Source: Candidatus Moraniibacteriota bacterium
GTDB taxonomy: Bacteria; Patescibacteriota; Minisyncoccia; JAHIHE01; JAGLIN01
NCBI GenBank assembly: GCA_030638895.1
Contig: DAOWDS010000020.1
Location: forward strand, 1-42,777
Reading direction: 5' to 3'
Length of the DNA stretch: 42,777 bases
The position numbers were made by a program, and so were the translations under genes. This document shows, piece after piece, positions 1,690 through 37,808 of this stretch (position 1 is its first letter; the number at the start of each line of letters is the position of its first letter). The notes beneath the pieces were generated by a model that saw only the letters and a program-made list of their open reading frames with translations, was not told where the DNA came from and ran no database searches.

Positions 1690-1825
1690 CTTTAAATTAC
1701 CCTGTCATCCTGAACTTGTTTCAGGATCTTTTGACTGCTACATCTAGCTTAAAATGAGTAAACATAACTTTTGTCATACGCAGATTCTGAACTAAATTCA
1801 GAATGACAAACCGGTAAATTTAAAG
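1690..1825 (+). repeat. Nested-palindrome MITE-like element, copy 1
   Basis: Head TGTCATCCTGAACTTGTTTCAGGATC and tail ATTCTGAACTAAATTCAGAATGACA. Outer inverted arms CTTTAAATTACC / GGTAAATTTAAAG. Same architecture as the copies at 23189, 24765 and 31008. Confidence 0.75.
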
Positions 1826-1864
1826 CAATATCATTATATAATTAAAAAATAGATAAATTTATAA

Positions 1865-3475
1865 ATGATAAAAAGATTAATAAACGGAAAGACTAAATCC
1901 ATAACCGCGGCCGCGCTGATACTGGCGGTGGCATCGCTTGCCAGTAAGCTATTAGGATTGTTTCGCGACAGAATTCTTGCCGGAAGCTTCGGACTTGGAA
2001 GCGAACTGGATATTTATTACGCTGCTTTTAGAATACCGGATTTTGTTTTTAATATCGTTGTTCTCGGCGCTCTTTCTGCCGGCTTTATACCGGTTTTTGC
2101 AAAGCTGGTTTCAGAAAAAAAAGAGGAAGAAGCTTTCAGAACAGCTAATGCGGTATTGAACTTAATTTTTGCAGCTCTTCTTTTTTTATGTCTGGTTGGA
2201 ATTATATTTACGCCGAATTTGATAAATTTTCTGGCCATAGGATTTGATGCGGAAAAAAAAGAAGCAACAGTAGCGCTTACGCGCATAATGTTTTTGAGTC
2301 CGATATTTTTACTTTTGAGCAGCATTACCGGAGGAATTCTCCAATCTTATAAAAGATTTTTTATCTACTCTCTTTCCCCTATTATGTATAATGTCGGAAT
2401 AATAATAGGAGCAATTTATTTTGCGCGCTGGTGGGGGCTTGTTGGTCTTGCTTGGGGAGTGGCTCTTGGATCTTTTCTGCATTTTGCGATTCAGTTTCCA
2501 ATAGTTAAAAGATTGGGGTTTAATTATCAGTGGATTATAGACTTCAAAGACAAAGGAGTGAGAAAAATAATAAAAATGATGATTCCGAGAACGCTTACTC
2601 TTGTCACAATACAAATTAATCTTGTTGTTATAACTATAATCGCTTCAACGCTTTCTGAAGGAAGTTTGGGTGTTTTTAATATTGCAAATAATTTACAGAG
2701 TTTTCCTCTCGGGCTTTTCGCTATTTCATTTGCAATTGCGTCTTTTCCAACATTATCCGCGCTAAGCAGTGAAGAAAATAGAAAAGAGTTTGCAGAAAAT
2801 TTGACAACAACAACAAAACAAATATTGTTTTTTATCATTCCTGTTAGCATTCTTTTTATTGTGCTTCGCGCCCAAATTGTTCGTGTCATATATGGAACGG
2901 GAAAAATCGGATGGGAAGAAACAATCTTGCTTTTTGAAGTTTTGGCGATTTTTTCAATAAGCTTATTTGCGCAAGGAATTATCCCTCTTATATCGCGCGC
3001 TTTTTGGGCTCTTCATAACGCTAAAACTCCATTTTTTACTTCACTTGCAAGCGTTATGATAAATATCATTCTTGCTTTTTCACTTTCAAAACAATATGGA
3101 ATTACTGGGCTTGTCGGAGCATTTTCAATTTCGTCAATAATAAACGCGCTGCTTCTGTATTATTTAATCAATAAAAAAATAGGCTTTATCTATCACAGAA
3201 AAATTTATAATCCACTTTTAAAAATATCCGCGTCTTCCATAATTGCTGGGTTTTTTTGTTACAAAACTTTATATTTAGTAGAACCATTTTTAAATACAAA
3301 TACAGGATTTGGACTTTTGACTCAGGGATTTTTTGCCGGACTTGTGGGACTTTTTACATACTGCATAATAAGCTGGAAGCTTGGAATAGAAGAATTTATG
3401 ATTTTTAAAAATTCAATCCAAAGAAGATTATTTAAGACGAAAATTGAAACTGCGGAAATTATAGCTAAGGAATAA
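1865..3475 (+). CDS. murJ: Lipid II flippase MurJ/MviN
   Basis: 536 aa polytopic membrane protein. N-terminus LGLFRDRILAGSFGLGSELDIYYAAFRIPDFVFNI is typical of MurJ. Confidence 0.9.
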   Translation: MIKRLINGKTKSITAAALILAVASLASKLLGLFRDRILAGSFGLGSELDIYYAAFRIPDFVFNIVVLGALSAGFIPVFAKLVSEKKEEEAFRTANAVLNLIFAALLFLCLVGIIFTPNLINFLAIGFDAEKKEATVALTRIMFLSPIFLLLSSITGGILQSYKRFFIYSLSPIMYNVGIIIGAIYFARWWGLVGLAWGVALGSFLHFAIQFPIVKRLGFNYQWIIDFKDKGVRKIIKMMIPRTLTLVTIQINLVVITIIASTLSEGSLGVFNIANNLQSFPLGLFAISFAIASFPTLSALSSEENRKEFAENLTTTTKQILFFIIPVSILFIVLRAQIVRVIYGTGKIGWEETILLFEVLAIFSISLFAQGIIPLISRAFWALHNAKTPFFTSLASVMINIILAFSLSKQYGITGLVGAFSISSIINALLLYYLINKKIGFIYHRKIYNPLLKISASSIIAGFFCYKTLYLVEPFLNTNTGFGLLTQGFFAGLVGLFTYCIISWKLGIEEFMIFKNSIQRRLFKTKIETAEIIAKE

Positions 3476-3560
3476 AACATAATTTATATAAGTTTATATT
3501 TGAATTTTGAATTTTTTTCTTGCGAAATAACAAAATTGTGCTATTCTATATAAGTATTTT

Positions 3561-3633
3561 GCGGATGTAGTTCAGTGGCTAGAACGTCTCCTTGCCAAGG
3601 AGAAGGTCGCCGGTTCGACTCCGGTCATCCGCT
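3561..3633 (+). tRNA. tRNA-Gly (GCC)
   Basis: Cloverleaf read by eye: acceptor GCGGATG/CATCCGC, anticodon loop TTGCCAA, T-loop TTCGACT. No encoded CCA. Confidence 0.9.
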
Positions 3634-28395: not shown

Positions 28396-29397
28396 TCAAC
28401 ATATTCTGGGAATCAGCTTTCCTTGTGGCATTTCAATCGGTCGCAGTCCACCAATTGAAGTTCTTAAAAATACTCCTTTCCCCTTTTCAACTTCACCGAT
28501 AATTTGCGCTTCAGGATTAAATTTTTGAAGTTTTTTTACTACTTTGTCAGAATCCTTCGCCGGCACACTTGCGATAAATCTTCCTTCAGATGGAAAAGCG
28601 AAGAGATTAACTCCTAAAAGTTCGCTAATTGCCACCACATCTTTTTTAAAAGGCAAGTTTTTTTCATCAAGAATAATTTTCACTTTAGATTTTTCAGCAA
28701 TTTCATTTAAATTTTCTCCCAACCCCCCGCGAGTCGGGTCCTTGCAAACATTCAAAAATTTTGCAACGTTTTGAACCTCTCTGACCAGCGGCTGACAATC
28801 ACTTTTCAATTTTGTCTTATAATTAAACCTCTCGCTCAAAATCACCGCTCCATGCTCCCCAAGATTGCCGGAAGTAATGATTTTATCTCCAGGTTTTGCC
28901 CCGCTATTTTCAATTATACTTTTCGCAAGACCAACTCCAGACGTGGTTATCTCAATTTTATCAACTTTGCCTTTTTCAGTAACTTTTGTATCTCCCGTCA
29001 CAACTGGAATTTTTGTTTCGCGTGAAACTTTATCAATTGATTTAATGATTTTTTCAAGATCTTTTGTTGGAAATCCTTCTTCAATCACAAAACTAAGCGA
29101 TATTCCAATTGGAACTGCCCCCATCACCGATACGTCGTTTATAGTTCCGCACATCGCGATTTTTCCAATATCCCCGCCTTTAAAAAATAACGGATCAATA
29201 ATGAAGGCGTCAGTCGTAAAAGCAAGTTTTTGGTTTCCTAGGTCGTAAATCGCCGCGTCGTCGCCCGTATTTTTCCATTTTCCAGTATATTTTATTATTT
29301 TTCGCAAATCCTTGAAAAATTTCCATGAAGCTTTTCCGCCAGAACCAAGTTCAAGAGAGATTGATGAGTTTTTGTTGAATGATTTTGGTGTTGACAT
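28396..29397 (-). CDS. hypE: Hydrogenase maturation protein HypE
   Basis: AIR-synthase-like fold pattern and the diagnostic C-terminal PRIC motif. Confidence 0.9.
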   Translation of the reverse strand: MSTPKSFNKNSSISLELGSGGKASWKFFKDLRKIIKYTGKWKNTGDDAAIYDLGNQKLAFTTDAFIIDPLFFKGGDIGKIAMCGTINDVSVMGAVPIGISLSFVIEEGFPTKDLEKIIKSIDKVSRETKIPVVTGDTKVTEKGKVDKIEITTSGVGLAKSIIENSGAKPGDKIITSGNLGEHGAVILSERFNYKTKLKSDCQPLVREVQNVAKFLNVCKDPTRGGLGENLNEIAEKSKVKIILDEKNLPFKKDVVAISELLGVNLFAFPSEGRFIASVPAKDSDKVVKKLQKFNPEAQIIGEVEKGKGVFLRTSIGGLRPIEMPQGKLIPRIC

Positions 29398-30981: not shown

Positions 30982-31007
30982 ATATTTTTTAAATTAAATT
31001 CATTTTT

Positions 31008-31158
31008 TAAATCTACCTTTTTAATTTTGTCATTTCAGGCAACATCATCTGTCATTCCGGACTTGATCCGAAATCTTTTATCCCTTAGGTAATGCTCTGT
31101 TAATTTCACAAATCTTTTTATTACTAACCGAAGATTCTGAATTAAATTCAGAATGACA
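31008..31158 (+). repeat. Nested-palindrome MITE-like element, copy 5, in the hypC-hypD spacer
   Basis: AAATCTACCTTTTTAATTTTGTCATTTCAGG...CTGTCATTCCGGACTTGATCCGAAATC...TTCACAAATC...TAACCGAAGATTCTGAATTAAATTCAGAATGACA. Confidence 0.8.
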
Positions 31159-31171
31159 CATAAATATAATT

Positions 31172-31381
31172 TTATTTTTCCTTCAACAAATCAGAGATAT
31201 CTTTTGTATCCTTGCTCGTCAATTTCTGAATTGCAAAACCAGCATGAACAATCACATAATTACCCTTTTTCACATCAACCAGAGAAATGTTTACCTGTCT
31301 TTCTATTCCATCAAAATCAACCAATGCGATGTTGATTTTTTTGTCCACTGATTTAATTTTTCCAGGAATCGCCAAACACAT
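31172..31381 (-). CDS. hypC: Hydrogenase maturation chaperone HypC
   Basis: 69 aa starting MCLAIPGKI (essential Cys2). Confidence 0.9.
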   Translation of the reverse strand: MCLAIPGKIKSVDKKINIALVDFDGIERQVNISLVDVKKGNYVIVHAGFAIQKLTSKDTKDISDLLKEK

Positions 31382-31410
31382 TGTTGTAAAATTATGAATT
31401 AAAAATAATT

Positions 31411-31446
31411 ACCCCCTCCCCGATAAGGGATGGTTGGGGGTGGGTT
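31411..31446 (-). terminator. GC-rich hairpin between hypC and the upstream ORF
   Basis: ACCCCCTCCCC-GATAA-GGGATGGTTGGGGGTGGGT. On the minus strand it is followed by AT/T-rich sequence. Confidence 0.4.
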
Positions 31447-31495
31447 TAAAATTTTAACTAAATCTTTTATATTCTCTGAGTAAAATAGTGATTTA

Positions 31496-31765
31496 TCACA
31501 ATGCTACTTTCTTAAATATCTCCTCTGTTTTTTCCAGTTCTAATTTAATTATTTTATATTTATCCAGTAATGCTTGTGGAACAGACTTGCCTGTATTTTC
31601 TATCATGCTAATTTCTGATTGACAAATTGTAATTTGTTTTCTCAGCCATCTCACATATTTTTCTTTCGTCATCAATGATTTTTTTCGCATTAAATATTCC
31701 GGAGTTATTTTTTCTAACTCCCAATTAAAACCAAAAACTATATTTTTAATAAAATCTAGAATCAT
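31496..31765 (-). CDS. Hypothetical protein (89 aa)
   Basis: ORF only; helical and charged; no recognised family. Confidence 0.45.
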   Translation of the reverse strand: MILDFIKNIVFGFNWELEKITPEYLMRKKSLMTKEKYVRWLRKQITICQSEISMIENTGKSVPQALLDKYKIIKLELEKTEEIFKKVAL

Positions 31766-31786
31766 AATTTAATTTTAATTTTTTAT

Positions 31787-32425
31787 TTATCTCATTGCCC
31801 CTTCAAACCTCTCATTTACCTTTTTCCAATTCACAACTTTCCAAAAAGCCTCAATATATTTCTCGCGGTCGTTTTTGTAATCAATGTAATAAGCGTGTTC
31901 CCAAACATCAAGCACAAGCAGAATCTTGAAGCTAGGATAGACATTCACATTGTGTTTTTCAATCTGCATCAGGATCGGTCGGTTTGTGCATTTGCAATAT
32001 GCTAAAGCCGCCCAGCCAGATCCTTCAACGCTTAAAGCTGTCTGAGTGAATTCTTTTTGAAATCTTTCAAAACTTCCAAATTCATTATTTATCGCAAGTA
32101 AGATGTTCCCGTTTGGCTTTCCTTTTTCATCATTTGTCGGAGTAAGATTATTCCAAAAAAGAGAATGTAAAAGATATCCACCGAGATGAAAGGATTGATT
32201 TTTCAAAACTGATTTCATATCCAAATCAATATTTTTTTCTCTTGCTTTTTTAAGTTTTTCAAATGACGCATTAATACCAGCGACATATCCAGCATGATGT
32301 TTTTGATGATGAATTCTAAGCTGTTTTTCGGAAATGAACGGAACAAGCGCTCCATATTTATAAGGAAGTTCGGGCAAAGAATAAAATTTATTATTATTTT
32401 TTTCCATATTTATTATCTTATTCAT
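31787..32425 (-). CDS. Fe/Mn superoxide dismutase
   Basis: HHQKHHAGYV and DVWEHAYYIDY metal-ligand motifs. Confidence 0.9.
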   Translation of the reverse strand: MNKIINMEKNNNKFYSLPELPYKYGALVPFISEKQLRIHHQKHHAGYVAGINASFEKLKKAREKNIDLDMKSVLKNQSFHLGGYLLHSLFWNNLTPTNDEKGKPNGNILLAINNEFGSFERFQKEFTQTALSVEGSGWAALAYCKCTNRPILMQIEKHNVNVYPSFKILLVLDVWEHAYYIDYKNDREKYIEAFWKVVNWKKVNERFEGAMR

Positions 32426-32526
32426 TAATAAATAAATGTCATAAATGCACTATATGCTTATTTTTATATTTTATACTATAAATTACATTATGACAAAAAA
32501 ATAAACAATAAACGTACTTAATATTT

Positions 32527-32555
32527 TTGACAATAGCAGTGTTTTGTTGTATAAT
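32527..32555 (+). promoter_or_regulatory. Perfect consensus sigma70 promoter
   Basis: TTGACA (32527-32532), 17 bp spacer, TG-TATAAT (-10 at 32550-32555). Confidence 0.65.
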
Positions 32556-32652
32556 ATATTATTTATCTCTATTATAACATATTTTATGATTATTTTCAAG
32601 TCATTTAGGTAATGTGTACACACATATTGCACTTTTGCTAGAATAAGAGCAT

Positions 32653-32844
32653 ATGTCAAAAACTATGCCACAATCAACACAAGAGGAAAAGTATAGATGG
32701 ATAAAGCCAATATTAGATAGAGAAATAACAATTAATAATATGAGTAAGGTATGCCCTTTCTCAGAAAGGTCGATAAAGTGTTGGTTAGCTAACTTTAGAA
32801 AGTATGGAATAGAAGGATTAAAAAATTTGACTTTACTGTTCTAA
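32653..32844 (+). pseudogene. Truncated HTH fragment resembling the N-terminus of IS481/IS630-type transposases
   Basis: 63 aa: KYRWIKPILDREITINNMSKVCPFSERSIKCWLANFRKYGIEGL, then the ORF stops. No catalytic domain follows. Confidence 0.4.
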
Positions 32845-32874
32845 AACAGCCAACTATTCCAATACTAATATAAT

Positions 32875-32890
32875 TGTTTCACGTGAAACA
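32875..32890. promoter_or_regulatory. parS: parS centromere-like site A (perfect consensus)
   Basis: TGTTTCACGTGAAACA; extended palindrome AATTGTTTCACGTGAAACAATT at 32872-32893. Confidence 0.8.
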
Positions 32891-33164
32891 ATTGAGAATG
32901 TCGTTTTAAGCCTATTTATAAAAAATCATAACTTACACTATTAATACGTATTTATATATGAAAGAATAGAAAGTACTAAACTAAATTCAGCGCAACAATG
33001 GTTGTTGTCAAATTAGAATTCATAATAACATACTAACATAATCACGTAATAACATTTTAACATAACAATTATGCGTAGTAATTTTAATTGTTAAAATGCT
33101 ATTATTAGGACGCAGAAAAATACTTTTTATAGCTGTCTATAAATAATACTATACCAGAAATAAG

Positions 33165-33295
33165 AAAGGTTCAGGTTGGACTTGTTTAGTTTATAGATCT
33201 CGCAGTCGTTATCGCTCTTTCGAGATGACAAAAGTGTTCTTCTGCAGTCTAACCCGTATTAACACAATGCTTCGACAAGTTCAGGATGTCATTTA
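33165..33295. repeat. Degenerate MITE-like element
   Basis: Contains CGAGATGACAAAAG and GACAAGTTCAGGATGTCAT (the latter is the reverse complement of the copy-1 head) plus the inner inverted repeat ATCTCG/CGAGAT. Confidence 0.45.
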
Positions 33296-33383
33296 TACAT
33301 ATTATTTATCCAAACGAGTAAGTCCTATTAATGTAAATAGATATGTCAACGCATTGAAACATTATAACAAGACATTAAATTTG

Positions 33384-35030
33384 CTATTCTTGAGTGTTTC
33401 TTGAAATTGCCAGTATTAAGGCTAAAACTAACCAAAAGATTAAACGACCCTGTTGTAATGTCCAAAAATAATGATCAAATATTCCTATAAATAAAAATGA
33501 TATTAATATTGCGATTAAAAAATAGTTTAATTTCCTTATATCTAAAATTGTTTCACGTGAAACAATTTTTATTGATCCTAAAATAACATATATTATAAAA
33601 AGAAGGAAAATTAATAAGCCAACCAAGCCAATCTCAGAGGCAATTAAAAAATAGATATTATGAGCGGGCTGATATTGCCATGACTCAAGTTCTTGTTTGA
33701 TATTATTATTTTCAAGATAATTATTGATTTGAAAAATAGATGTTCCTATTCCAGAACCAAAAAGAAAATTGTTTGAAATTGTTTCACGTGAAACAATATT
33801 ATAAAATGTTCTATCAGAAAAAGCAGAATTATTAGACAAAGTATCGTTACTAAACAAAGCTCCGTCAATTCGCGCTTGAATTAAAGAAAAATTTGAAATA
33901 ATTAAAAATAAAGATAAAAAACAAACAATAATTAATTCTTTATAGCAAAAAAGTAATTTTAGTATTTTTTTATAATTATTAACTGGTTTTAATAAAATTG
34001 TTTCACGTGAAACAATTTTATGGTCATAAAGATAAAGCACGCTTATCACAAATAAAGACAACAAAAATCCTATCCAAGCAGTTCTCGAAAATGTAAAAAA
34101 TATCGCCGCAGTTTGAACAAATATAAGAGTTATCCATAATAAAGAATATAATATATCTTGACTTTGGATACTATTTATGTTATTATATTGAAATAATCTT
34201 AAAAATTTAATTGTTTTAATATACACAAATTTAAATATTTGTGTCAAACAAATGTAAATAAACATTTTCTTATTTTCTGAATATGCTCTAAAGTCTAATT
34301 GACTTGACAAACTACATCTTTTATGTTCTAAATATAAATAAATTGTAATTACTGTCGTAAAAATTAAAAAACCTCCAAGAATGTTTGGATGAGGAAAAGT
34401 TCCATAAGCTCTTATTATTTTTTCACCGTCCACTGCTATCTTTGCAACTCCCGGAATTTGCGGACCAATAACTGATTCTCCTGTAATTTTAGCCAAAATT
34501 GGAGAAGAAAAAACTGAATGTTGCGCAATAAACTGATAAATTGCGATAAGACTCTGTAAAAAGCCGGAGAAAACTATAATAAACAAGCTCGTAAACAATG
34601 TTTTACTGTTTTTAAAATTAAAATAAACAAAAATCACTAAAAGAGATAATTCTATTAATTTAACTGTTTGAAAAATGTTTATTTTTGGATAATTATTGTT
34701 AATTGCTAAATTTAGCGTTATCCAAATAAAAAAAACAAGTAAAAACAACCAGACTTTGGGCAGCTTAGCTCCCTTTTTAAATTTATTATATATAGATTTA
34801 GATACTTCACTTAAGTAGGAAAAATTTTTAAAAATAAAAAAGATCCAAAAAAATATAGCTAAGATCAAAAAAATATCAGACGCATAGACAAACAAGGTTG
34901 TCCATTCAGTAAATGCGTCACTATAGAATGAATAATCAGTCAAAAAAACCTTCCTCGTTTGAAAGGGGATTAAAAATAGAAATAAATAGAAAAAATAGAT
35001 GTGTAGATTGTTAAGTTTTATCAACTTCAT
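33384..35030 (-). CDS. O-antigen ligase/polymerase (Wzy_C) family membrane protein carrying three in-frame parS sites
   Basis: 548 aa polytopic protein; FTFSRTAWIGFLLSLFV and QPAHNIYFLIASEIGLVGL motifs; IVSRETI appears three times. Confidence 0.75.
   Translation of the reverse strand: MKLIKLNNLHIYFFYLFLFLIPFQTRKVFLTDYSFYSDAFTEWTTLFVYASDIFLILAIFFWIFFIFKNFSYLSEVSKSIYNKFKKGAKLPKVWLFLLVFFIWITLNLAINNNYPKINIFQTVKLIELSLLVIFVYFNFKNSKTLFTSLFIIVFSGFLQSLIAIYQFIAQHSVFSSPILAKITGESVIGPQIPGVAKIAVDGEKIIRAYGTFPHPNILGGFLIFTTVITIYLYLEHKRCSLSSQLDFRAYSENKKMFIYICLTQIFKFVYIKTIKFLRLFQYNNINSIQSQDILYSLLWITLIFVQTAAIFFTFSRTAWIGFLLSLFVISVLYLYDHKIVSRETILLKPVNNYKKILKLLFCYKELIIVCFLSLFLIISNFSLIQARIDGALFSNDTLSNNSAFSDRTFYNIVSRETISNNFLFGSGIGTSIFQINNYLENNNIKQELESWQYQPAHNIYFLIASEIGLVGLLIFLLFIIYVILGSIKIVSRETILDIRKLNYFLIAILISFLFIGIFDHYFWTLQQGRLIFWLVLALILAISRNTQE
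33549..33564. promoter_or_regulatory. parS: parS site B
   Basis: TGTTTCACGTGAAACA within the 26 bp palindrome AAAATTGTTTCACGTGAAACAATTTT (33544-33569). Confidence 0.8.
33780..33795. promoter_or_regulatory. parS: parS site C
   Basis: TGTTTCACGTGAAACA, preceded by a partial duplication AAAATTGTTTGAAATTGTTT. Confidence 0.8.
33999..34014. promoter_or_regulatory. parS: parS site D
   Basis: TGTTTCACGTGAAACA within AAAATTGTTTCACGTGAAACAATTTT (33994-34019). Confidence 0.8.
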
Positions 35031-35400
35031 TAAGATTAAATAAACTTCACGCGCTTGTTTTATTTTATATAAGGGGGATTAAAAGGGTTTTAAATATGAA
35101 GTTATAATTATAAAATTTCATATTATTTATAGACACGTAATTAATCACATCTCTACTAAATTCATTTTTAATTTACAGCTTTTTGATATTCCAAATTTCT
35201 CCCCAATCTTTCTTTTGTCATAGGAGTGGTTTGTGTCGAAATTCCTCAGTAATAAATTAGTTCCGAACATGGTTTCAGTTTAGCAAATGTTATCTTAAAT
35301 TACAAATATTTTATCAGAATGATAAAACCTAAATTAGATAAAAATTTTTAGAGTCAGAGATCTTTGTAAAATTTGGAATAGAATTTAATGGGGATAGGAG

Positions 35401-36315
35401 TTGACAAGAATTGCAAATGACTACCTAACTTGGTATGGAAAATATAAGAATGGATGGTGGGATCAATTTCTAGCCAAAGAGTCTATAAATAAACCAACCT
35501 CCACTTTAACAAAAGGATTCAGTTCAACTGAACTATGGTTTGTTAAGGGAGTAGACCAGCAATATTGGTTTACGGGAATGACATCTATCTCAAGTTCCGA
35601 TGATTCTCTGTCAAGTATCGTTTTGGTCGGTTCGCGCGATCAAAAGATATATGAATACGATATTAGTGGTCCAAATGAGCAGTCCATTATAAGCGCTGTC
35701 CAATCGGCAGTTTCAAACTATGACAACAGAGTAGCTGGCCCACCAATACCACATAATTATGGTGGAAAACTAACATATACAGTTCCAATTGACGCAGAAG
35801 ATGATCAGGGAAAGAGGATATTAATGGAAATTGCATTTGTAGATGCATCTTCATCAATGCCACATGTTGAGTATGCGACTACAAAAGCAGAAGCATTTAA
35901 TAATTTCAGAAAATATATGGGCGGAAAAGGATTTGAATTTACATTTTCATCTTCAAGTTCGTATCAAGAAATTATTGGATCTGTAAAACGATTCGCTGAC
36001 ATGTCTATAAACGGAAATTCTGTTTATAGAATCTGGCTGAATAATTCCGAGATAATTTTTGAAATTGTTCCCTTTATTAATCCAGAGGTAACAATTACTC
36101 AAGAAGGTGATATGGTTAAACTATTCTATGATGATAACACCGAAACCGTTGTTGTTGTCAGCAACTTTGATAACTTGGATATTGAAGCTAGGAAAGGACA
36201 GGACCAAAAAGAATTTAAAAAAGATAAAGAGGTGAGAGACAAAAAGAAAGAGGTATTAAGTGATATAGAAACTTTAGAAAGAGAACAAGATAAATTGAGA
36301 AATAGTCTCGATTAG
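35401..36315 (+). CDS. Hypothetical protein with charged coiled-coil C-terminus; start uncertain
   Basis: 304-codon ORF starting at TTG. The first in-frame ATG is about 60 codons in. No TM or signal peptide; no recognised family. Confidence 0.45.
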   Translation: MTRIANDYLTWYGKYKNGWWDQFLAKESINKPTSTLTKGFSSTELWFVKGVDQQYWFTGMTSISSSDDSLSSIVLVGSRDQKIYEYDISGPNEQSIISAVQSAVSNYDNRVAGPPIPHNYGGKLTYTVPIDAEDDQGKRILMEIAFVDASSSMPHVEYATTKAEAFNNFRKYMGGKGFEFTFSSSSSYQEIIGSVKRFADMSINGNSVYRIWLNNSEIIFEIVPFINPEVTITQEGDMVKLFYDDNTETVVVVSNFDNLDIEARKGQDQKEFKKDKEVRDKKKEVLSDIETLEREQDKLRNSLD

Positions 36316-36331
36316 ATCTTCAAATAAACTT

Positions 36332-36386
36332 GGAAGCAGAGTGCTCAGCAATGCTGAGATCATAACACTCTCCTTCCGTTTTTTTT
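36332..36386 (+). terminator. Compound intrinsic terminator
   Basis: Outer stem GGAAGCAGAGTG/CACTCTCCTTCC, inner stem CTCAGC/GCTGAG, then a T8 run. Confidence 0.7.
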
Positions 36387-36568
36387 ATGTCTTTTTTTAT
36401 TTATTGACAGAAAATATAAATAAGCCATCTGATAAGCAGACAGCTTTAATGTTTTGTAAGTTTTTTATTTTTATCTTTGTCATATTTTTTAATGCTTTTA
36501 TTTAGTTTAACAAATATATTATAAAAAACAAGTTGAATGAAGTATTATATCCAGTTAAGTGGATAAGG

Positions 36569-36597
36569 TTGACATGGTTAAAACTTTTTGTTACATT
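36569..36597 (+). promoter_or_regulatory. Promoter for the M24 peptidase gene
   Basis: TTGACA, 17 bp spacer, TGT-TACATT. Confidence 0.55.
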
Positions 36598-36677
36598 ATT
36601 GTATGGGCATAATTTGATAATAGGAAATGTCTATAATTGTTCTTTATAAAAAATATTGAAAACAGGAGAATAGAAAA

Positions 36678-37808
36678 ATGCCAGATACAAAAGAAATGAA
36701 AGAAGGAACAGCTAAATTAATTGTTGCCTCTAGCAAGAAAAATTCCAATATGTTTTACGCGACTAAATTTTTTACGCCAGATCCATTCATTTGGCTTAAA
36801 ACAAAAGATGGAACAAAAGTATACGTTAATTCTTTAGAGTTTGGAAGAGCTCAAAAAGAAGCTATTGTTGACGAAGTAGTGGATGATTTTGAATTCAATT
36901 CCGGAAATTCTTTTCCTGACAAACTTGTTGACATTTTACAAAACAATGGCATTGAAAAAGTTTTGGTTCCTAAAAATTTTGAGATACAGTATGCCAAAGC
37001 ATTGTTTGATAATGGAATTAAAATTGACATCAAGCCTGGAATCTTTTTTGAAGAAAGGGCAATTAAAACCCAAAAAGAGGTGCGGGAAATCAGAAAAGTT
37101 CAAAAAGTTGCTGAAAAAGCGATGAGCAAAGCGATCAATCTAATACAAAAATCAGAAAGAGGAGGATTAGACAAGCTTTTTTATTTGGGAGAACCATTAA
37201 CCTCGGAGATGGTTAGAGAAGCCATACACATTGAATTTTTGAAAAGAGGCTGTGGTTTTGAGCCAAGTATTGTAGCTTGCGGAAAGGACAGCGCTGATCC
37301 GCATCAGACGGGAGAAGGGCCATTGTTTGCCGACCAGCCGATTGTTATAGATATATTTCCAAGATCGCACAAAAGCGGATATTTTGCTGATATGACAAGA
37401 ACTGTTGTAAAAGGAGAAGCTTCTCCTGAAATTGAAAAAATGTATGCTGCAGTACTTGAAGCTCAAGAAGCAGCGATAAAAGCAATTAAGCCTGGAATAA
37501 GCGCCAGCGCGATTGACTTGATGATACGCGATCATTTTAAAAAATGCGGATTTAAGACAGAAAAGGTCGACGGAAAACATCAAGGCTTCATTCATGCCAC
37601 TGGTCATGGAGTTGGACTCGAGATGCACGAAGATCCGATAATATACAGGACAAACGAAAAAACCTTAGAACACGGAAATGTGTTTACGGTAGAGCCTGGA
37701 TTATATTATCCAGAGATTGGTGGAATAAGAATTGAAGACCTTGTCGTTGTTACCAAAAATGGGGTTAAAAATCTCACCCAGTTTTCAAAAGACAATCTGA
37801 TAATTTAA
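36678..37808 (+). CDS. M24-family Xaa-Pro peptidase
   Basis: Creatinase/prolidase-type N-domain. Metal ligands in DIFPR..YFADMTRT, HGVGLEMHE, EPGLY and IRIED. Confidence 0.85.
   Translation: MPDTKEMKEGTAKLIVASSKKNSNMFYATKFFTPDPFIWLKTKDGTKVYVNSLEFGRAQKEAIVDEVVDDFEFNSGNSFPDKLVDILQNNGIEKVLVPKNFEIQYAKALFDNGIKIDIKPGIFFEERAIKTQKEVREIRKVQKVAEKAMSKAINLIQKSERGGLDKLFYLGEPLTSEMVREAIHIEFLKRGCGFEPSIVACGKDSADPHQTGEGPLFADQPIVIDIFPRSHKSGYFADMTRTVVKGEASPEIEKMYAAVLEAQEAAIKAIKPGISASAIDLMIRDHFKKCGFKTEKVDGKHQGFIHATGHGVGLEMHEDPIIYRTNEKTLEHGNVFTVEPGLYYPEIGGIRIEDLVVVTKNGVKNLTQFSKDNLII

Follow-up and report, generated by a model that had tools for sequence, protein, structure and literature searches.

A probable chromosomal parS centromere overprinted on a WaaL/Wzy_C-like membrane-protein gene in Patescibacteria

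The four palindromes found on a contig of Candidatus Moraniibacteriota bacterium very probably constitute the parS centromere of the chromosome, with three of the sites overprinted on an intact gene for an O-antigen-ligase-like membrane protein, in what the comparison of homologous sequences indicates to be an old, vertically inherited arrangement that may owe its position to history and to the tolerance of the host protein. The stretch of DNA analysed, hereafter the window, comprises 42,777 nt, and the genome belongs to a Paceibacterota/Moranbacteria-related group. ParB and its parS sites form the most widespread chromosome-segregation system of bacteria, although, to our knowledge, next to nothing has been learned of how chromosomes are segregated in the candidate phyla radiation (CPR), a group that accounts for much of bacterial diversity. 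The locus described here appears to be DNA under dual selection, both for the protein it encodes and for the array of protein-binding sites it carries, a state maintained at orthologous codons throughout a deep radiation. The features concerned are collected in Table 1.

Table 1. Features of the parS array, its host gene and the neighbouring elements in the window
Feature	Coordinates	Strand	Description
Possible degenerate fifth parS, TGTTTCGCGTGAAACT	29014..29029	.	Two mismatches; within hypE-like gene, also read VSRET
parS copy A	32875..32890	.	Intergenic, 493 bp past the host-gene stop codon; 22-bp palindrome
parS copy B, slot 3	33549..33564	.	IVSRETI, residues 489-495; short cytoplasmic loop TM10-TM11; 26-bp palindrome
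parS copy C, slot 2	33780..33795	.	IVSRETI, residues 412-418; outer-loop helix; 20-bp palindrome
parS copy D, slot 1	33999..34014	.	IVSRETI, residues 339-345; cytoplasmic loop after TM8; 30-bp palindrome
Host gene	33384..35030	-	Intact; predicted 548-aa, 12-helix WaaL/Wzy_C (O-antigen-ligase-like) membrane protein
Conserved element upstream of host gene	35273..35313	-	About 35 nt; TTGTAA-17-TAAACT, TG before second hexamer

A motif scan of the window recovered the 16-bp word TGTTTCACGTGAAACA four times with zero mismatches (copies A to D), whereas shuffled versions of the window yielded 0.01 matches on average even with up to two mismatches allowed. This inverted repeat fits the parS consensus TGTTNCACGTGNAACA, which relatives realise as either TGTTTCACGTGAAACA or TGTTCCACGTGGAACA. 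Successive copies from A to D are separated by 674, 231 and 219 bp, the whole array covering 1.14 kb, and the last two spacings are both multiples of three, copies B, C and D occupying one shared reading frame. The initial annotation had placed consensus parS at these four positions, three of them within the host gene, each translated as IVSRETI and spaced 231 and 219 bp apart, and our rescan of the sites and of their coordinates agreed with it in all these respects. Its further claim that three copies share a 26-bp palindrome had to be corrected, since AAAATTGTTTCACGTGAAACAATTTT is common only to copies B and D, while the arms of copy C (GAAAT...ATATT) and of copy A (ATAAT...ATTGA) delimit palindromes of 20 and 22 bp, respectively. 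All four copies have the 20-mer ATTGTTTCACGTGAAACAAT in common, and the sequence shared among copies extends over 20-28 bp only. Across the 866-kb, 60-contig assembly, the sites with up to one mismatch are the four array copies and nothing else. Their confinement to one locus sets the motif apart from a generic repeat, a possibility that the initial annotation had proposed to check by counting, and the dispersal expected of a REP- or MITE-like element was not seen, as no copy lies outside the array. The sole two-mismatch match in the whole genome is the hypE-like site, located 3.9 kb from the array, whose sequence may be partly owed to the motif that precedes GDTKV in the hypE-like protein.

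A search for the partner proteins, likewise proposed in the initial annotation, located a canonical parA-parB operon (268 and 293 aa) on contig C55, the array being on contig C60. The encoded ParB contains a ParB_N domain (E = 2e-29), scores 175 bits on the NCBIfam model parB_part (cut-off 58), matches the solved ParB/Spo0J structures 7bnk, 4umk, 1vz0 and 6t1f at E = 1e-40 to 1e-50 and carries the CTP-binding motif GERRLQAAK. It is the only ParB of the genome and adjoins ParA, as would be expected for the cognate protein of a chromosomal parS, and the presence of a canonical operon on a separate contig argues for the array being the chromosomal centromere. A role as SMC-loading site presupposes that SMC-ScpAB is encoded, which was not found in the assembly at hand. 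The SMC_hinge profile (PF06470) had no match in this genome and 30 relatives, in which control profiles did match, and none of the long ORFs of the assembly was SMC-like with a Walker A motif, although a divergent hinge, or a gene in the 13% of this genome that the assembly lacks, could have escaped detection. A literature search on condensin in Patescibacteria returned nothing relevant.

The gene that harbours copies B to D encodes a protein matching Pfam Wzy_C over residues 304-476 (59.7 bits, cut-off 31.7, E = 3.6e-16). Its AlphaFold2 model (pLDDT 85, pTM 0.88) had WaaL (7tpg_B) as the only significant PDB fold match in Foldseek (E = 3.3e-4, probability 1.00), at only 11% identity and TM-scores of 0.42/0.55, and its hydropathy profile agrees with a polytopic WaaL-like fold. 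The host protein is intact and is modelled in the WaaL fold, its 12 transmembrane helices accompanied by a large outer loop that bears conserved Arg and His residues. Orthologues are 32-64% identical to it, and in an alignment of 45 sequences 18 columns are invariant, R407 among them, with H457 nearly so. We regard the product as a putative WaaL/Wzy_C-like glycosyltransferase, which may act on an undecaprenyl-linked glycan as a ligase or polymerase; we know of no lipopolysaccharide described for CPR cells.

The association between the array and this gene extends far beyond the window. In-gene parS-like sites were present in 68 of 80 Patescibacteria loci, at two to 17 per gene, and over the 80 loci their density was 2.50 per kb inside the gene versus 0.055 per kb in the flanks. 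Among the matches listed, the perfect parS sites of each relative form a single array of two to nine sites on one contig. Each array examined in relatives sits in a gene that blastp confirmed as orthologous to the host gene; extra copies directly 3' of the gene also occur in relatives. Mapped onto a tree of the host proteins, the presence of parS within the gene required three changes, whereas shuffled states required 9.1 on average and none of 500 shuffles gave a number that low; the window falls in a clade of ten with 100% support, all ten members of which carry parS. Taken together, these comparisons indicate that the array has probably been in the host-gene orthologue since before the split of the window's family from Moranbacteria, and that it has been inherited vertically. 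The family genomes in which parS was not found (G003, G015, G019, G022), as well as the order-level genome G026, are assemblies from which the host gene is also absent. A different case is that of G014 (locus L022), where ParB is present, the three slots are decayed and the assembly contains no other recognisable parS, so that either the link between parS and the gene is not absolute or this assembly is incomplete.

Concerning the position on the chromosome, dnaA lies on contig C17 of this assembly and the array on C60. In all six relatives that have dnaA and the host gene on one contig (genomes of about 1 Mb), the two are 21-83 kb apart, with the host gene on the 5' side of dnaA. The genes that separate dnaA from the host gene in those relatives fall here mainly on contigs C17, C12, C40 and C60, with a few single genes elsewhere. 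This synteny is suggestive of where C60 would stand relative to dnaA, and proximity of the array to the origin is plausible. No DnaA-box cluster was detected at the array, the AT-rich gene having three one-mismatch boxes, a number matched at several other genomic places; contig C15 and the region upstream of dnaA on C17 offer better candidates.

It could be argued that the centromere has been kept in frame because its position works. Transertion of the polytopic host protein might tether ParB bound to parS, together with the surrounding origin region, at the membrane, or ParB might gate expression of the gene over the cell cycle and so couple an envelope enzyme to replication and segregation. 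We consider this unlikely, although several observations speak for it. The association with one gene has held across a deep clade despite the non-coding space alongside, with gaps of 493 and 370 bp beside the host gene, in which Rfam and tRNA scans revealed no known RNA (positions 31000-37000, E <= 1, one sub-threshold chance match only; no tRNA near the array). The conserved upstream element, the core of which is invariant in six genera, resembles a promoter pointing into the host gene. Moreover, a tether would matter in ultrasmall cells without apparent SMC, the hinge having gone undetected in 31 genomes of the class, or known polar anchors. Likewise, at loci L117 and L118 the parS sites are not in frame, yet lie 0.3-1.3 kb upstream of a Wzy_C homologue. 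On the other hand, the outgroup loci L115, L116 and L120 have their parS arrays between genes, immediately upstream of dnaA, with four to nine sites in 0.3-0.85 kb and no membrane-protein gene involved. These arrays are equally tight, which indicates that embedding in a gene is unnecessary for a working tight array and that the in-gene placement is specific to a lineage. Nor does the host gene run in a constant direction with respect to the presumed fork, being head-on in four and co-directional in two of the six relatives; this mixture is uninformative.

The initial annotation had interpreted the array as the repeated insertion or duplication of a centromere module. Read as a recent event, in which a mobile centromere module or a REP/MITE-like palindrome repeatedly entered an unrelated gene, this interpretation now seems very improbable and is largely refuted for this genome. 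The genome does contain a dispersed repeat, inserted between copy A and the host gene at 33136-33350 and with copies on at least 12 contigs, and in some relatives only (e.g. loci L004, L005 and L011) parS has been duplicated along with the adjoining coding sequence, within loops that have expanded. Alignment of the orthologues, suggested in order to see whether the IVSRETI segments are insertions, gave a divided answer. Slots 1 and 3 are indeed additions of about seven residues in cytoplasmic loops with respect to distant orthologues, the loop of slot 1, after TM8, being modelled at low confidence; these additions are ancient and common to relatives. Slot 2 involves no indel. Orthologues without parS read YLDQAKELIKNN or NNIAFSMIKEN at this place, and the unchanged length points to an origin by substitution, in a helix (residues 402-420) of the large outer loop that AlphaFold2 modelled with a pLDDT of about 97. 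The three slots are, furthermore, orthologous across genera whose host proteins are 45-64% identical. Such shared slots, the substitution at slot 2, the short sequence common to the window copies and their confinement to a single locus, with zero copies elsewhere in the genome, all tell against a recent insertion.

The use of codons and frames bears on whether the peptide or the DNA word is conserved. Every VSRET in the host gene is spelled by the exact parS 16-mer, and elsewhere in ORFs of at least 80 aa the peptide occurs only at the two-mismatch hypE site. Although 1152 codon combinations would give VSRET, no synonymous variation was found at the slots within the family. VSRET is the sole frame used in the family of the window, and in the 13 closest loci all 46 sites within the gene are read in it; frame 0 of the AT-rich parS variant found here contains TGA, which leaves two open frames only. 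In the relatives that use TGTTCCACGTGGAACA, the site has been placed in all three frames, yielding VPRGT, FHVE and CSTWN, and hence it is the DNA word that is conserved and not the peptide. In the distant loci L088 and L092, VSRET is kept with synonymous CGA or CGG codons that break the palindrome, so the peptide can persist for its own sake, and the best NCBIfam E-value of the ParB is that of the Noc model, at a score under the Noc cut-off; yet selection of IVSRETI as a protein motif with an incidental palindrome, or service of the sites to a DNA-binding protein other than ParB, is scarcely credible in view of the invariant codons, the three frames, the non-coding state of copy A and of many copies in relatives, and a canonical parS word in a genome whose only ParB adjoins ParA.

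A centromere placed by history and tolerance remains, in our opinion, the reading to be preferred. By what is established for ParABS systems, dimers of the single canonical ParB would nucleate on the four sites, be converted into CTP-dependent clamps and spread over the neighbourhood, and the adjacent ParA ATPase would move the resulting ParB-parS complex, segregating the sister chromosomes. A helix whose sequence was already near ...SRETI and two loops tolerant of extra residues could have hosted parS, and selection for a tight cluster might then have kept new copies inside that one gene or immediately 3' of it; copy A, being non-coding, counts toward selection at the level of DNA. We infer that this is the most economical account of the placement in the host gene, although it leaves unexplained the long stay of the array in a single gene that has intergenic gaps beside it.

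The locus provides a natural system in which to study how a centromere and a gene share one sequence, how RNA polymerase and ParB clamps occupy the same DNA, and whether it matters where a centromere stands with respect to a membrane-protein gene. There is also a practical side. Short-read assemblies are broken by these arrays, many of which lie at contig ends, so that they could serve as a landmark for the origin region of these metagenome-assembled genomes; by the same token, the host gene will often be missing from bins for technical reasons.

Clusters of parS sites are well known, as with parS1-4 of Pseudomonas aeruginosa or the cluster of more than 20 sites in Myxococcus xanthus, and single sites within coding sequences have also been described, including the one inside spo0J of Bacillus subtilis. 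A full-text search for parS combined with CPR taxa or with O-antigen ligase found no paper on a gene-embedded array of this sort; the site is of a known kind, and its conserved gene-embedded form was not found in the literature. In Corynebacterium glutamicum, ten 16-bp parS sites are spread over 35 kb, 73 kb from oriC, and one of the ten is coding (PMC7083940). The array of the window resembles such origin-proximal ParABS clusters in the 16-bp palindrome, the ParA/ParB pair, the clustering and, in relatives, the location on the origin side at 21-83 kb from dnaA, but it differs from that of C. glutamicum in being a centromere of about 1.1 kb that lies mostly in frame in one conserved membrane-protein gene, at orthologous positions. 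The host protein, for its part, is similar to WaaL (7TPG) and Wzy_C in its score above the gathering threshold, its 12 predicted transmembrane helices and its outer loop with invariant Arg and His, and unlike WaaL in that two of its cytoplasmic loops and one outer helix contain heptapeptides encoded by parS. The Rickettsia palindromic elements offer a further parallel, as palindromic DNA translated within an otherwise conserved protein and tolerated in loops; those elements, however, are dispersed, mobile and longer and have no known binding protein, whereas the parS copies are confined to one locus, measure 16-30 bp, occupy orthologous slots and represent a defined protein-binding site. The closest comparison within Patescibacteria is with the outgroup arrays L115, L116 and L120, built from the same 16-mer and just as tightly packed, which are non-coding and located at the presumed oriC, while in the lineage of the window the array resides in a Wzy_C gene, tens of kb from dnaA.

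A pattern search of the window found perfect copies of TGTTTCACGTGAAACA, the ParB-binding centromere site parS, at all four positions where the initial annotation had placed them (sites A to D), and dinucleotide-preserving shuffles of the window contained a mean of 0.01 matches, even with two mismatches allowed. The sites are spaced 674, 231 and 219 bp apart, the two shorter distances being those reported earlier, and B, C and D are indeed in frame in the ligase-like gene, each translated as IVSRETI. The 26-bp palindrome ascribed to three copies was recovered in B and D but not in a third, those of A and C being shorter. All four share ATTGTTTCACGTGAAACAAT, and no relatedness among them extends past ~28 bp. 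Throughout the fragmented metagenome-assembled genome (866 kb, 60 contigs, 87% complete, ~31% G+C) these are the only sites with no or one mismatch, so that the motif is not a generic repeat. The sole site with two mismatches, TGTTTCGCGTGAAACT, lies 3.9 kb off the array in a hypE-like gene and is also translated VSRET, directly before a conserved GDTKV motif; it may be a weak fifth parS, or a coincidence partly driven by the protein motif at this place.

Coordinates of the parS sites and associated features in the window, in other contigs of its assembly (C) and in loci of relatives (L)
Feature	Nucleotides	Host residues	Description
parS A	32875		22-bp palindrome
parS B (slot 3)	33549	489-495	26-bp palindrome common to B and D; short low-confidence loop directly after TM10
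parS C (slot 2)	33780	412-418	20-bp palindrome; inside confidently modelled helix 402-420 of the large TM9-TM10 outer loop
parS D (slot 1)	33999	339-345	palindrome extends to 30 bp; short low-confidence loop directly after TM8
Two-mismatch site	29014-29029		in hypE-like gene
Dispersed-repeat fragments	33136-33350		between parS A and host stop codon
Host gene	33384-35030 (minus strand)	1-548	Wzy_C match
Promoter-like core	35273-35313		upstream of host gene
DnaA-box cluster, C17	31999-32322		three boxes just upstream of dnaA
DnaA-box cluster, C15	2087-2258		two perfect boxes and one with one mismatch; 4-kb contig
L114 array	2702-3519		ORF-free region
L115 array	2786-3619		nine parS; ORF-free region directly upstream of dnaA (1048-2457)
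L116 array	1776-2031		four parS; ORF-free region directly upstream of dnaA
L117, L118 arrays			two parS, 0.3-1.3 kb upstream of Wzy_C homologue, beside TrmB-like gene
L120 array			upstream of dnaA; neighbouring gene same as in L115

The cognate proteins are encoded in the same genome. A profile search returned one ParB_N match, on contig C55, where parA (268 aa) and parB (293 aa) adjoin and are followed by a greA-like gene. This ParB carries GERRLQAAK, scores 175 bits on NCBIfam parB_part (cut-off 58) and aligned to solved ParB/Spo0J/Noc structures (E = 1e-40 to 1e-50), with 7bnk ranked first. By analogy, ParB would nucleate on the parS sites and spread as a CTP clamp, and ParA would drive segregation. 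In model bacteria parS is also the SMC-loading site. Neither the window's genome nor any of 30 relatives of its class, 28 being of high quality, yielded an SMC hinge (PF06470), while control genomes were detected, so this role is unsupported here; nor did the window's assembly contain a long SMC-like ORF bearing a Walker A motif. SMC condensin is thus possibly absent lineage-wide beside a conserved ParABS, though a divergent hinge is conceivable. One relative (G008; 99% complete, 1% contamination) encodes two canonical ParB genes and a pair of host-gene paralogues. Both paralogues contain an array (at least nine perfect parS in one; two perfect and two near-perfect in the other), so the genome could have two replicons, or its centromere system could have been duplicated.

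The identity of the host gene as O-antigen-ligase-like was upheld both by the Wzy_C match (Pfam, E = 3.6e-16) and by the AlphaFold2 model of its product (45-sequence alignment; pLDDT 85, pTM 0.88), whose only significant PDB neighbour was the WaaL O-antigen ligase 7tpg_B (E = 3.3e-4, probability 1.00). The protein is intact, with 12 transmembrane helices according to hydropathy and the model. Its large TM9-TM10 loop bears an invariant Arg and a nearly invariant His, and the counterpart of this loop in WaaL (7TPG) is periplasmic; the K/R-rich side, where the loops of slots 1 and 3 are found, would therefore be cytoplasmic.

Perfect parS sites occurred in 26 of 40 relatives, and those with sites listed had one array each, on one contig, of ~0.2-1.5 kb and 2-9 sites among those listed. 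All of the 14 arrays examined lay in a frame of 500-840 aa orthologous to the window's host protein by blastp (44-64% identity within the family, 32-33% at order level). A good number of them lie at the ends of contigs, a sign that parS repeats may break assemblies. Four parS-less family genomes (G003, G015, G019, G022) and one at order level (G026) lack the host gene as well in their assemblies, and most of them encode ParB; assembly dropout best explains this joint absence. In a wider scan of 80 loci with the host gene, 68 contained 1-17 in-gene parS-like sites (up to two mismatches), mostly two or more, at 2.50 per kb within the gene compared with 0.055 per kb across flanks of 6 kb, where most sites were directly 3' of the gene. 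The loci of relatives are labelled Candidatus Paceibacterota, Patescibacteria group, Candidatus Moraniibacteriota/Moranbacteria or Parcubacteria group, which places the window genome in the candidate phyla radiation (CPR).

A maximum-likelihood tree built from 45 host proteins requires only three changes of the in-gene parS state, compared with a mean of 9.1 in shuffles, none of 500 being as low; the window falls within a ten-member clade (support 100%) whose members all carry parS. The three slots are orthologously conserved, and selection acts on the DNA word. In higher-G+C lineages TGTTCCACGTGGAACA occurs in each of the three reading frames and is translated as VPRGT, FHVE or CSTWN. The window's AT-rich word contains TGA in one frame, and the VSRET frame serves all 46 in-gene sites of the 13 closest loci. 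An exception to the association is G014 (loci L022, L097), a family member with ParB. All three slots of its host gene carry decayed sites (VSNKII at slot 2, VSSEI at slot 3), and its assembly holds no other recognisable parS.

The IVSRETI segments had been proposed to be insertions. Orthologue alignment agrees for slots 1 and 3, which are additions of ~7 residues relative to parS-less orthologues, but not for slot 2, where length is unchanged and orthologues without parS have sequences such as YLDQAKELIKNN or NNIAFSMIKEN; some lineages retain VSRET, but a synonymous CGA or CGG codon disrupts their palindrome. Relatives with extra parS copies have them in these same two cytoplasmic loops, which are expanded in a lineage-specific way and in some cases hold duplicated flanking sequence as well. 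We infer that one helix already near ...SRETI and two addition-tolerant loops would have made this gene a parS host, in which selection for clustering would then have retained new copies.

Alternatively, the placement itself might be functional, through transertion tethering or ParB-gated expression of the host gene. The apparent absence of SMC speaks for this, as does a promoter-like element pointing into the host gene: a ~35-nt core, TTTAGTTTAGCAAATGTTATCTTAAATTACAAAT, invariant in six genera with proteins 45-64% identical, which on the host gene's strand reads TTGTAA-17-TAAACT with TG before the second hexamer. In sequence this core is promoter-like and may include an operator; 245 nt separate it from the ATG in the window, against 20-40 nt in L025 and L004. 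On the other side of the gene, the 493 bp that separate parS A from the stop codon hold dispersed-repeat fragments with copies on at least 12 other contigs (75-88% identity), whose insertion probably displaced parS A from the gene. Against a functional placement, Patescibacteria with a parS-less Wzy_C homologue have equally tight arrays elsewhere, some upstream of dnaA, so that a membrane-protein gene is unnecessary for an array. The tight array is thus the general feature and embedding the lineage-specific one, confined to the Moranbacteria-related clade and, separately, two Doudnabacteria entries (L061, L090). The ORF-free regions of L114, L115 and L116 (0.9-1.6 kb, 4-9 perfect parS each) are candidates for oriC or for remnants of a decayed host gene. 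Non-coding stretches of this length are unusual for genomes so compact.

As to the origin, dnaA is on C17 and the array on C60, the window's own contig. In six relatives with ~1-Mb genomes the host gene is 21, 50, 52, 53, 55 and 83 kb from dnaA, always on its 5' side, a range biased downward because only these six, on long contigs, carry both genes together. Genes between the two in four relatives map mostly to C17, C12, C40 and C60, and singly to C5, C29, C43 and C48, with local order rearranged; this synteny is consistent with an origin-side position of the array, without being a measurement of it. No DnaA-box cluster was found at the array. The clusters on C17 and C15, the best of the genome, are candidate pieces of oriC.

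Both tight clusters of parS and lone parS sites within genes have precedents. Our literature search found no paper on a parS array in frame in one conserved gene across a lineage, nor on parS in CPR bacteria. C. glutamicum has ten parS within 35 kb, 73 kb from oriC (PMC7083940); only one of those ten is coding, whereas three of the window's four lie in frame in a single gene.
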